Assembly: GCA_964626035.1 (NCBI GenBank)
Contig: CAZVEC010000001.1
Coordinates: 1-29,551 of the forward strand
Direction: 5' to 3'
DNA length: 29,551 nucleotides
DNA from: an uncultured Candidatus Saccharibacteria bacterium
Lineage (GTDB): Bacteria > Patescibacteriota > Minisyncoccia > Phycocordibacterales > CAZVEC01
Shown here piece after piece: positions 1,807-19,131 of the stretch. Made by a program: the position numbers and the translations under genes. Positions within the stretch are counted from its first letter, which is position 1. Each line of letters starts with the position of its first letter. The notes below the pieces were generated by a model, which did not search any database, was not told the origin of the DNA, and saw only the letters and a program-made list of their open reading frames with translations.

Positions 1807-2256
1807 CTACTTTAGTATTATTTCTTTTTTGGAAAGCTTTTTCAGCTTCACAGCTGCTTCTGCGTAAGTGTTTGAGCTTTTTTTGTAAATTTCGATAGCC
1901 TTGCCGGCTTTTTCATTATGTTTCTCTATGTTGCGTAAAACTGCCTTCTTGTCTTTTTTTCTTATGCGGCAATTTTTTATTGCATCCGACAAATAACCAT
2001 TACCTTGGTTTAATAATTCAATGGCTTCGTCAGATTCTTTTATGGCTTGGTTTAATTGCATAATAATTTCCATCGCTTCATTTAAGGCATTGAAACAACC
2101 AATACTATTTGTGTCTCTTATATAAACTCCATTTAAGACGGTTTCGTGTTGCATGCTGTCTTTTGTATAAACACCACTCAAGACAGTGGGACGATTTTGG
2201 CTATAAAGACCATTGAACAATAATATCGGCAGAAGGAAAAACAGTAATTTTTTCAT
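1807..2256 (-). CDS. Secreted helical hypothetical protein, paralog of 456..935
   Basis: Signal peptide MKKLLFFLLPILLFNGLYS|Q; aligns by eye with 456..935. Confidence 0.8.
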   Translation of the reverse strand: MKKLLFFLLPILLFNGLYSQNRPTVLSGVYTKDSMQHETVLNGVYIRDTNSIGCFNALNEAMEIIMQLNQAIKESDEAIELLNQGNGYLSDAIKNCRIRKKDKKAVLRNIEKHNEKAGKAIEIYKKSSNTYAEAAVKLKKLSKKEIILK

Positions 2257-2290
2257 AATTTTTAGTTTTAAAGTGCGTAAATAAATTCAA

Positions 2291-2339
2291 TTTAAAATTA
2301 TCACAAAACCATTGACAAGTCAAGGATTTGTGCTAGGAT
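2291..2339. promoter_or_regulatory. Second copy of the divergent promoter with TTGAC-AA-GTCAA (2312..2323)
   Basis: Near-identical to 940..1018: GTGCGTAAATAAATT...CAAAACCATTGACAAGTCAAG.ATTT.TGCTAGGAT. Confidence 0.6.
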
Positions 2340-2378
2340 TGGGATGAATAATTTGTTTAACCTAAATGCTCATTTAAA

Positions 2379-2873
2379 ATGAAAAAACTAATTCTATTGT
2401 CATTATTGATATCATTATCAGTAATGATCTGGCTTCCTGTTTCAGCTCAAACAGATGAAAAGGAAATTATGCCCGTATCTTTCTGCCTTTCGTCAACACA
2501 TAAATTGGCGAGCATGATGTCCGATATTCAGGTAAATAATTATTTAAAAACTAGAACAGTGTTGACGATTTCAACAATGTTCATTGAAGGTGAAGAGTTT
2601 ATGGCTATTATTGGTTTGTATAAAGATACGACTTTGCAGCCAGGGTTTTATGTAAAAAACGGTAAAAAATGGTGTTGGGTAGCATCTTTGTTCTATGTAT
2701 GGGGGGATTATTTTCCGTCTCATGTAAGGATATATAAGCCGAAAGAAAGATTTAGTTATTGTGACGAAAATGAGAGTATTGAATTGGTTTATACAGACTA
2801 CAAAGGTGGTGAATATAGCGAAATTTTTGATCCCAAAACAAAGGAAGTAGTAGCTATTGTTAATCATTACTGA
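2379..2873 (+). CDS. Secreted hypothetical protein
   Basis: Signal peptide MKKLILL...WLPVSA|Q; followed by a terminator. Confidence 0.75.
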   Translation: MKKLILLSLLISLSVMIWLPVSAQTDEKEIMPVSFCLSSTHKLASMMSDIQVNNYLKTRTVLTISTMFIEGEEFMAIIGLYKDTTLQPGFYVKNGKKWCWVASLFYVWGDYFPSHVRIYKPKERFSYCDENESIELVYTDYKGGEYSEIFDPKTKEVVAIVNHY

Positions 2874-6839: not shown

Positions 6840-6862
6840 TCTCCCTAATTTTGCTTATTATG

Positions 6863-6935
6863 TCCGCCCTCTAGGACTTGAACCTAGAACCTAGCGAGTA
6901 TAAGTCGCTTGCTCTACCAATTGAGCTAAGGGCGG
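6863..6935 (-). tRNA. tRNA-Ile, anticodon UAU; CCA not encoded
   Basis: Cloverleaf: CCGCCCT/AGGGCGG acceptor, GCTC/GAGC D-stem, AGCGA-CT TAT AC-TCGCT anticodon arm, CTAGG-TTCAAGT-CCTAG T-arm, discriminator A73. Confidence 0.93.
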
Positions 6936-17710: not shown

Positions 17711-17801
17711 TGGCGGAGGGGGTGGGATTTGAACCCACAGGCGGCTTTTAAGACCGCCACGGATTAGCAATCCGTTCGTTTAACCATTCACGCACCCCTC
17801 C
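17711..17801 (-). tRNA. tRNA-Ser, anticodon GCU; CCA encoded
   Basis: GGAGGGG/CCCCTCC acceptor, ACGGA-TT GCT AA-TCCGT anticodon arm, long variable arm, GTGGG-TTCAAAT-CCCAC T-arm, G73-CCA. Confidence 0.95.
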
Positions 17802-17820
17802 TTCTGGTTTTTATCTTACG

Positions 17821-18831
17821 CTAAATTTTATATCTTTTCAAATGCTTATTGTTATGTGTACCTACAATCCGCATATATTTTTTAACATCCTGAATTCTAT
17901 CTAACCGGACGTCGAATACGGTTGTGAATCGAGGGTGAAGTCCAATATTTTTTAATATCGTATAAACTGATTTAAGCAACGGTTTCGATTTATTTGTGAA
18001 TGCTATTTTTTTGTACTTATATATCTTACCTCTGACTATATATCGATGAGTAAAAACGCAGCCATCTGTATCTATGAGACCTCGTACGCAGGCTATTGAA
18101 TATTTATTATTATCAAGAATCCATCTAGGAATATCAACTTGGTGATGCACTTTATTTCCGGCCATCAGTCCAAGTGAAGACATATAATCTATAAGCCCCT
18201 TTCGTGAGATAGTGACATCTCTTATCATCAGCTTTCTTTTGTTCCTATATTGATATATTGCAGGAGTAACTTTGAAGAGACGGTTAAGTAAATTTTTCAC
18301 ATACAAAATATATTCGGCATCCGTTACTCGATTTAGAGTAATTCTAATTTGGTTTTTTGTTATACTGCCGTCTCCAAGTAAAATTCCGCATATCTCAGCA
18401 AGTTCTGTCGACTTTTCTGGATAGTAAACGTATTTTTCTTTTCCGAATAAAGTATTAAGTCCAAGGTGTCCTTCCTTGACCCACCACTTGCTCCATTGTT
18501 GTTTACGAAAGAGTTCATCGCCACAAACTTTTCCGTATTTTTTAAGCTTGCTTGTGCCTCCGATTTTACCTGCCTTACTTGTGTGCTCAGACCATACAAT
18601 TATTTTTCGCGGTGATGGCAAGGGTATTCTAGTTAGTTTTGATAATTGATCCCCTACGGTACATGTAATTCTAAATTTATTTCTTCGCCAGTCTCTAATT
18701 GTACGTTCTGATACTTTTAGTTTTTTTGCGATAATAGCAATAGTCCATCCTCTATATTTCAATATTTGCTCAATAAACTTTTTTTGCGCGCCACGAACAA
18801 ATTGATATCTAGATGTATATGATTCAGACAT
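17821..18831 (-). CDS. Free-standing two-motif LAGLIDADG (DOD-type) endonuclease-like protein with an N-terminal HTH
   Basis: HTH TIAIIAKKLKVSERTIRDWRR; motif 1 ELAEICGILLGDG; motif 2 CVRGLIDTDG; both acidic catalytic positions retained; no intein splicing residues evident. Confidence 0.9.
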   Translation of the reverse strand: MSESYTSRYQFVRGAQKKFIEQILKYRGWTIAIIAKKLKVSERTIRDWRRNKFRITCTVGDQLSKLTRIPLPSPRKIIVWSEHTSKAGKIGGTSKLKKYGKVCGDELFRKQQWSKWWVKEGHLGLNTLFGKEKYVYYPEKSTELAEICGILLGDGSITKNQIRITLNRVTDAEYILYVKNLLNRLFKVTPAIYQYRNKRKLMIRDVTISRKGLIDYMSSLGLMAGNKVHHQVDIPRWILDNNKYSIACVRGLIDTDGCVFTHRYIVRGKIYKYKKIAFTNKSKPLLKSVYTILKNIGLHPRFTTVFDVRLDRIQDVKKYMRIVGTHNNKHLKRYKI

Positions 18832-18867
18832 GTCTCCATAATATCAAAACATAGCATTAATTTAAAG

Positions 18868-18896
18868 TGGACAATCTTGTATAGAAAAGCTATAGT
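18868..18896 (+). promoter_or_regulatory. Sigma70 promoter of tRNA-Ser(ACU)
   Basis: TGGACA-17-TATAGT ending 14 nt before the tRNA. Confidence 0.6.
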
Positions 18897-18910
18897 TACG
18901 ATTAAATTTA

Positions 18911-18997
18911 GGAGGAATGGGTGAGTGGTTTAAACCAACGGTTTACTAAACCGTCGTCCTTTAATCGGGACCGTGAGTTCGAATCTCACTTCCTCCG
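18911..18997 (+). tRNA. tRNA-Ser, anticodon ACU; CCA not encoded
   Basis: GGAGGAA/TTCCTCC acceptor, GGT/ACC D-stem, ACGGT-TT ACT AA-ACCGT anticodon arm, long variable arm GTCC/GGAC, GTGAG-TTCGAAT-CTCAC T-arm, discriminator G73. Confidence 0.9.
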
Positions 18998-19131
18998 CAG
19001 TTTGAAACGCAGTGAAAACTGCGGAGGAAAGCAAGTTAATTACTTCACTTGCGAGTGAGATTCGAACGCTAGAGCATAAACAAGGAACGAAGTGATTATG
19101 TTTTGTCTCCACTACCTCGTGCTAGCACGAG
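18977..19131. repeat. Antisense mirror of the tRNA 3' end plus nested hairpins
   Basis: 18990..19003 pairs with 19016..19029 (14 bp); 18977..18990 pairs with 19054..19067 (14 bp); GCAAGT/ACTTGC hairpin between them; CTCGTGCTAGCACGAG palindrome near 19116..19131. Confidence 0.85.

Follow-up and report, generated by a model that had tools for sequence, protein, structure and literature searches.

A probable free-standing LAGLIDADG homing endonuclease gene docked on tRNA-Ser(GCU) in a Patescibacteria genome, with a putative tRNA promoter in its last codons

The stretch of DNA analysed here, hereafter the window, comprises 29,551 nucleotides (nt) of contig CAZVEC010000001.1 (assembly GCA_964626035.1) and belongs to an ultra-small groundwater bacterium of the Patescibacteria, or candidate phyla radiation (CPR), type, with a low-GC, 925-kb genome that is 91% complete. 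Within the window, two divergent serine tRNA genes, tRNA-Ser(GCU) and tRNA-Ser(ACU), are separated by 1109 nt, and this space is occupied by one long open reading frame (ORF) that encodes a LAGLIDADG protein. The ORF lies upstream of tRNA-Ser(GCU) on the same strand, with exactly 19 nt (17802-17820) between its stop codon and the tRNA, and its start codon is exactly 79 nt (18832-18910) from the divergent tRNA-Ser(ACU). These distances had been given in an initial annotation made from the sequence alone, and the coordinates obtained with ARAGORN, Infernal and an ORF search reproduce them (Table 1). According to ARAGORN and Infernal, both tRNAs are complete, of type II and uninterrupted, and tRNA-Ser(GCU) is the sole GCU serine tRNA among the 36 tRNAs found genome-wide. 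The Rfam scan of the window gives no match to an intron family, the ORF has no Hint or extein sequences on either side, and its ATG stands behind a promoter-like site of its own, all of which agrees with the earlier view that the gene is neither intron-encoded nor part of an intein.

Table 1. Features of the tRNA-Ser(ACU)/tRNA-Ser(GCU) locus and of the encoded protein (window positions unless residues are given)
Feature	Position	Strand	Basis or details
tRNA-Ser(GCU)	17711-17801	minus	ARAGORN and Rfam/Infernal, 58.8 bits, full model 1-71, not truncated
Promoter-like site for tRNA-Ser(GCU)	17813-17841	minus	TTGAAA-17-TAAGAT, consensus scan
Endonuclease ORF, 336 aa	17821-18831	minus	ORF search
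Predicted catalytic Asp256 codon (LIDTDG)	18066-18064	minus	
Predicted catalytic Asp154 codon (LLGDG)	18372-18370	minus	
N-terminal XRE-type HTH	about residues 15-67 of the ORF		
Trp-rich helical linker	residues 80-124 of the ORF		
Monomeric two-motif LAGLIDADG endonuclease core	about residues 140-336 of the ORF		
Promoter-like site for the ORF	18838-18866	minus	TTTAAA, 17 nt, TG-n-TATTAT extended -10
Promoter-like site for tRNA-Ser(ACU)	18868-18896	plus	TGGACA-17-TATAGT, 10/12 matches, ends 14 nt before the tRNA
tRNA-Ser(ACU)	18911-18998	plus	ARAGORN and Rfam/Infernal, 57.8 bits, full model 1-71, not truncated

The product of the ORF is most likely an intact two-motif LAGLIDADG homing endonuclease, in which a core of the archaeal I-Tsp061I/I-DmoI type is preceded by an N-terminal helix-turn-helix (HTH) of the XRE type. 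The same two domains had been recognised in the initial annotation and are recovered by Pfam, with a clear match to LAGLIDADG_3 (PF14528; E-value 3.3e-13, 50.1 bits against a cut-off of 22.5) and a marginal one to HTH_23 (1.7e-5). The two acidic residues reported there as intact are present as Asp154, in the GDG motif, and Asp256, in the DTDG motif, and both are invariant in 83/83 full-length members of the clade linked to tRNA-Ser(GCU). A profile of 20 homologs matches I-Tsp061I (PDB 2DCH) over the whole core and the C-terminal NPxHLxR motif (E 1.3e-7). The same structure is the best Foldseek match (template modelling score, TM, 0.74 by target) of an AlphaFold 2 (AF2) model of the ORF, whose mean predicted local distance difference test (pLDDT) score is 87; further matches include intein endonucleases, the bI3 and I-AniI maturases, relatives of I-OnuI, and I-DmoI. 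The leading ones (2dch, intein endonucleases, I-AniI, I-OnuI and I-DmoI) reach a probability of 1.00 each, and the modelled protein is predicted to adopt the pseudo-dimeric alpha-beta-beta-alpha-beta-beta-alpha fold. Modelled alone, residues 1-135 (pLDDT 83) resemble HTH proteins of the XRE/Cro type, such as SinR, HipB, C-proteins and Aca1, in matches that are weak (E 0.02-0.1, TM 0.6-0.78 over about 60 residues). NCBIfam holds no model for the family; the only match there, well under its cut-off, is to the endonuclease portion of an intein protein.

A WhiA-like regulator or an RNA maturase, which the initial annotation had offered as the alternative, finds little favour in these data. WhiA also combines a LAGLIDADG scaffold with an HTH, but its HTH is C-terminal, it lacks the catalytic acidic residues and it is broadly conserved in its host phyla, whereas the window protein carries the HTH at its N-terminus and keeps both aspartates invariant, and its gene is sporadic. 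The WhiA model of Pfam (PF14527) scores 17.9 bits on the ORF, under its cut-off of 23.2, and no WhiA structure is found within the best 50 fold matches of the AF2 model. For a maturase, the neighbouring tRNAs contain no introns on which it could act.

Judged by homology and gene order, the ORF is a member of a large, unnamed family of Patescibacteria proteins, the genes of which are docked immediately ahead of one particular tRNA gene, in the same orientation. A protein search retrieves 653 relatives, mostly 325-340 amino acids (aa) long and about 45% identical, from metagenome-assembled genomes (MAGs) of the Parcubacteria type, and a pattern scan finds a relative encoded in 356 species genomes. 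Linkage to tRNA genes, the survey of neighbours that the initial annotation had called for, is near universal among these homologs. A tRNA lies directly downstream on the same strand in 104 of the 111 homolog loci with a protein match, the other seven being mostly contig ends, and it is mainly tRNA-Ser(GCU) (85 loci), followed by Ser(GGA) (7), Ser(UGA) (5), Tyr(GUA) (4), Ser(CGA) (2) and Ser(ACU) (1). The gap from stop codon to tRNA is mostly 7-37 nt in these loci, and some ORFs enter the tRNA. The same arrangement recurs at 25 of 28 further loci of the order to which the window belongs, with Ser(CGA, UGA, GGA, GCU), Tyr or Gln tRNAs; in two of the remaining three, a tRNA-Ser(GCU) in the same orientation follows at a greater distance. 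On a protein tree (quick maximum-likelihood, IQ-TREE), clades track the docked tRNA, the Tyr clade being monophyletic, and the tRNA label changes 7 times, compared with 18.7 in shuffles, none of which (0/200) is as low. The frequency of docking at the 111 loci and the few label changes on the tree indicate that the association with tRNAs is real and lineage-specific.

The distribution of the family is patchy. Matches with E <= 1e-20 are found in 19 of the 401 genomes sampled across the phylum, any relative in 9 of 41 near relatives, and a search with the C-terminal half detects the gene in 38 of the 301 genomes of the order, some of which carry two copies at different tRNAs. A genome of the same genus (G001) has its copy on tRNA-Ser(GGA) rather than on tRNA-Ser(GCU). 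Among distant members in the same order, three (L174-L176, from G526, G570 and G639) lie directly upstream of tRNA-Gln(CUG). Additionally, a second LAGLIDADG ORF is present in the genome of the window (locus L002; G000 contig C88, about 2056-2810, minus strand), which encodes 251 aa with both LAGLIDADG motifs and no HTH. Its frame extends 26 nt into a tRNA-Cys(GCA) gene, which is followed by tRNA-Leu(UAA), so that the docking habit reaches a type-I tRNA.

By their sequence motifs, three transcription units are packed into 1.3 kb at the window locus, namely tRNA-Ser(ACU), the endonuclease gene and tRNA-Ser(GCU), each behind a promoter-like site. Of these sites, the one assigned to tRNA-Ser(GCU) lies across the end of the endonuclease gene: its -35 element (17841-17836) coincides with the Leu-Lys codons of the conserved C-terminal KHLKRY motif, and its -10 element (17818-17813) begins 2 nt past the stop codon, 11 nt before the 5' end of the tRNA. 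The endonuclease gene thus appears to carry the promoter of tRNA-Ser(GCU) in its final codons and stop region, and the pattern extends to the family. The Leu codon of KHLKRY is TTG in 61 of 76 cases, against 16.7% of the other Leu codons of the same ORFs. A TAnnnT box is found 16-18 nt away in 60 of 80 distinct loci, compared with 0-11 of 80 at nine of ten control spacings; at the tenth (10-12 nt) it is found in 43 of 80, because the conserved Arg-Tyr codons create TAnnnT there. In most of the loci with 16-18-nt spacing, the end of the embedded -10 box lies 9-14 nt from the tRNA. In one subclade, in which the C-terminus is three residues longer, the -10 element TAGGAT falls within the Leu-Gly-stop codons and the gap is 7 nt; it is the geometry of the promoter, and not the length of the protein, that has been kept.

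The site ahead of the ORF itself has a different layout, since its extended -10 element ends only 6 nt (GGAGAC) before the ATG. In 38 of the 80 distinct family loci, TGnTAnnnT likewise ends exactly 6 nt before the start codon. This distance implies a leaderless or nearly leaderless transcript, and the endonuclease mRNA is thus probably leaderless. As a separate observation, one subclade (L043, L053, L057, L065, L075, L085, L088, L090) has ATA in place of the usual ATG after the TGnTAnAAT-GGAGnn box, and its first ATG is found about 30 nt downstream; the proteins of this subclade would have either a later start or a non-canonical leaderless one.

The other neighbour of the ORF, tRNA-Ser(ACU), is found widely without it. 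A 13-mer from the ACU anticodon stem-loop is present in 41 of the 301 genomes of the order (14 control hits). Among 30 loci fetched with this 13-mer (L114-L142 among them), 28 are tRNA-Ser(ACU) genes according to ARAGORN, and 27 of these 28 have no endonuclease gene nearby. In the order, this A34-containing tRNA often has tRNA-Ser(GCU) as its partner, arranged divergently or in tandem, and compensatory changes are seen in the stems of eleven copies. Among the homolog loci, ACU is the nearest upstream tRNA, 33-119 nt away, in only 10. The occurrence of tRNA-Ser(ACU) without the ORF in 27 related genomes identifies it as a resident neighbour and not as cargo; in these bacteria it is a native gene, independent of the endonuclease element.

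Empty alleles, which the initial annotation had suggested looking for in relatives, have been found. Six loci (L127-L130, L136, L137), each from a different genome among the 27 with tRNA-Ser(ACU) but no ORF, hold divergent ACU/GCU pairs with 47-133 nt between the genes and no endonuclease gene, and in L091 an endonuclease gene sits in the same ACU/GCU spacer in the opposite orientation, docked on tRNA-Ser(ACU). Additionally, metagenome contig L146 carries a tRNA-Ser(GCU) with the unusual D-arm type of the window copy, 84% identical to it, without the endonuclease gene; an aspartase-like gene lies upstream of the tRNA instead. The tRNA promoters of the empty alleles are of the extended -10 kind (TGnTAnnnT), mostly 10-20 nt before the tRNA. 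From these comparisons, the window copy occupies the spacer of a pre-existing divergent ACU/GCU pair that is empty in related genomes. No pair of empty and filled loci with conserved flanks on both sides is found among the empty alleles compared. Genome G001 had been considered as an empty allele from the same genus and was rejected, as synteny is not conserved and the homologous two-component locus has no tRNA. Independently of the ACU/GCU pairs, the divergent upstream neighbour of the endonuclease gene is tRNA-Arg(GCG), and not tRNA-Ser(ACU), in eight loci (L056, L065, L072, L075, L078, L080, L085, L109), and a divergent tRNA pair therefore seems to be a recurrent landing place.

Taken together, it is fairly probable, in our judgement, that the window contains an intact, free-standing homing endonuclease cassette, docked on a tRNA gene and supplying a replacement tRNA promoter from its own 3' end. 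The targets of the enzyme would be tRNA-Ser(GCU) loci without the gene, cut at the promoter or 5' end of the tRNA or close to it; repair of the double-strand break would then copy the cassette in. Once installed, the cassette would express itself from its leaderless extended -10 promoter, and its 3' end would provide the -35 and -10 elements for the displaced tRNA. Because the replacement promoter would arrive with the cassette, the sole tRNA that reads AGC is proposed to stay expressed. The same arrangement would, in turn, hinder deletion of the 3' end of the selfish gene.

Several observations bear on the mobility that this reading entails. The sporadic distribution and the empty pairs amount to a presence/absence polymorphism. 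The homology among the window and its close relatives L013 and L014 ends at the outer ends of the two tRNAs, and the identity of the endonucleases correlates weakly with that of the linked tRNAs (Spearman 0.14): the window and L013 share 74% of their protein sequence and 60% of their tRNA sequence, whereas L014, although more distant, resembles the window more closely in its tRNA. In G025, a decayed copy is reduced to about the last 80 codons and the embedded promoter, beside tRNA-Ser(GCU). A tRNA 5' fragment stranded upstream of the ORF is found in no member of this clade, the best duplicates being at most 11 nt and resembling chance matches or GGAG boxes. The patchy spread, the empty sites and the several tRNA targets, together with persistence, would fit a selfish element that stays for long periods.

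Other results weigh against a mobile cassette. In the L033-L049 subclade, the upstream flank is about 70% identical, the same as the endonuclease gene, and a flank as conserved as the gene points to the two having been inherited together for a long time, not to a recent invasion. Of the 44 hits in the order, only 2 are truncated. So few remnants would be unexpected if the gene were purely selfish, although pseudogenes are purged quickly from small genomes. When tRNA-Ser(GCU) genes that do and do not accompany an endonuclease gene are compared, no diagnostic difference separable from phylogeny emerges that would hint at the target or explain an escape from self-cleavage. In the low-depth assembler contigs of the source groundwater metagenome, no joint skips the ORF and every allele seen contains it. 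The locus was looked for in RNA runs and found in none. The promoter sites, moreover, are matches to a consensus, and we infer cleavage, the target site, homing, immunity of the filled allele and promoter activity from sequence.

A further step can be put forward more tentatively, and we would give it somewhat less than an even chance, namely that the His-Leu-Lys codons with their fixed TTG and the stop region hold the promoter of an essential single-copy tRNA in a 'promoter-hostage' strategy. With the tRNA promoter placed in the end of the gene, insertion would be harmless, but a subsequent deletion of the selfish gene would leave the tRNA silent. If true, this would represent an addiction-like mechanism of persistence for homing endonucleases, and would explain why intact, vertically inherited copies are found in streamlined genomes.

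The best surviving alternative, which we consider unlikely, is that the gene is a domesticated, non-mobile host factor that is useful at the tRNA locus, either as an HTH-guided regulator of tRNA-Ser or of its own promoter, or as a host nuclease or nickase; a domesticated DNA-binding role for the protein is possible. Such a factor would account for the upstream synteny of L033-L049, kept at the divergence of the gene itself, and for the predominance of intact ORFs over the few remnants, and it agrees with the resemblance of the N-terminal domain to repressors of the XRE type and with the protein tree, where several Candidatus groups make their own clades. It is harder to reconcile with a gene that is found in only about 5% of the sampled genomes of the phylum, and with relatives in which the locus is empty and the tRNA has an ordinary extended -10 promoter. 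Domestication of the WhiA type, and many maturases, involve loss of the catalytic acidic residues, whereas here both aspartates are invariant. Sister clades at other tRNAs, sometimes two in one genome, and the discordance in similarity between endonuclease and linked tRNA also speak against domestication.

Far less probable is the version closest to the initial annotation, which had proposed a free-standing homing endonuclease spreading together with an extra tRNA by cutting tRNA loci that lack it. The first half of this proposal agrees with the free-standing position and the conserved catalytic residues; the second half, with tRNA-Ser(ACU) as cargo, is largely refuted by the genomic comparisons. 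In its favour, the closest copies (window, L013 and L014/L147) keep the ACU-endonuclease-GCU trio amid different outer neighbours, with homology stopping at the outer tRNA ends. However, the same tRNA-Ser(ACU) occurs without endonuclease in the 27 genomes mentioned above, often beside tRNA-Ser(GCU), and on the protein tree the copies adjacent to ACU are spread over at least three different clades. The constant partner is the downstream tRNA-Ser(GCU), and not the extra tRNA, which is the nearest upstream one at so few loci. Finally, an ORF within a spliced intervening sequence, or an RNA-binding tRNA maturase, is the least credible reading. In its favour, the fold matches include the bI3 and I-AniI maturases, and rRNA insertions with LAGLIDADG ORFs have been reported from this group of bacteria. 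Against it, each of the two tRNAs fits the whole tRNA model uninterrupted, the ORF begins at a start codon of its own behind its own promoter box, intron families and Hint or extein flanks are absent from the window, and the catalytic residues are kept beside tRNAs with no intron to mature.

Among known systems, the closest functional analogue of a docked cassette of this kind would be SegB of phage T4. According to the abstract of the published account, SegB is a free-standing GIY-YIG homing endonuclease encoded in the T4 tRNA cluster, its 27-bp recognition site includes the conserved T-psi-C motif of tRNAs, and its homing moves the gene and neighbouring tRNA markers into relatives without SegB (PMC2330249). 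Both genes are thus free-standing endonuclease genes among tRNA genes, but SegB has the GIY-YIG fold, is phage-borne and is not fixed before one tRNA; the abstract mentions no tRNA promoter inside the coding sequence (PMC2330249), and for the window gene cleavage and homing are predicted activities. In sequence and fold, the closest proteins are I-Tsp061I (2DCH) and I-DmoI, which have in common with the window protein the two motifs with their catalytic Asp and the C-terminal NPxHLxR. These are encoded in archaeal rRNA introns and have no counterpart of the 135-residue N-terminal HTH-linker module, whereas the window gene is free-standing, with its own promoter-like site, in a bacterial tRNA spacer. 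Stand-alone intergenic LAGLIDADG and GIY-YIG ORFs are also present near tRNA genes in fungal mitochondrial genomes; neither strict docking on a single tRNA nor a promoter that overlaps the ORF end has, to our knowledge, been reported for them. In full-text searches of a limited literature collection, no paper describing LAGLIDADG genes docked on tRNAs in CPR bacteria was found.

Homing endonucleases are usually described within self-splicing introns or inteins, an arrangement that spares the host gene. The LAGLIDADG enzyme of the window seems to avoid damage to its host differently, by being parked before a tRNA with a replacement promoter in its coding sequence. If confirmed, this would reveal a new means by which selfish genes settle at essential loci of minimal genomes, and the family would be a source of natural nucleases with specificities for tRNA genes (Ser, Tyr, Gln and others). 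It would also provide a clear case of DNA that encodes both the end of a protein and a promoter, which can be tested with one synonymous mutation, and would explain the recurring, unannotated 'hypothetical protein' beside tRNA genes of Patescibacteria.

Two minor features lie outside the tRNA spacer. Beyond tRNA-Ser(ACU), within 18988-19075, the last 11 nt of the tRNA and its trailer pair with an inverted copy at 19020-19033, in a perfect hairpin of 14 bp (dG -23.9 kcal/mol), and an inverted copy of the T-loop of the tRNA (GTTCGAATCTCACT) is located at about 19054-19070, with a small hairpin between. This inverted 3' fragment had been considered as a footprint of the element and was rejected: it is not conserved in L013, L014 or L147, and is therefore local to the genome of the window. 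The structure may be a terminator or a fold-back repair scar. Finally, a tRNA-Ile(UAU) gene is found at 6862-6935 of the window (71.6 bits), in a genome that also has tRNA-Ile(GAU) and in which ARAGORN finds a single CAU tRNA.

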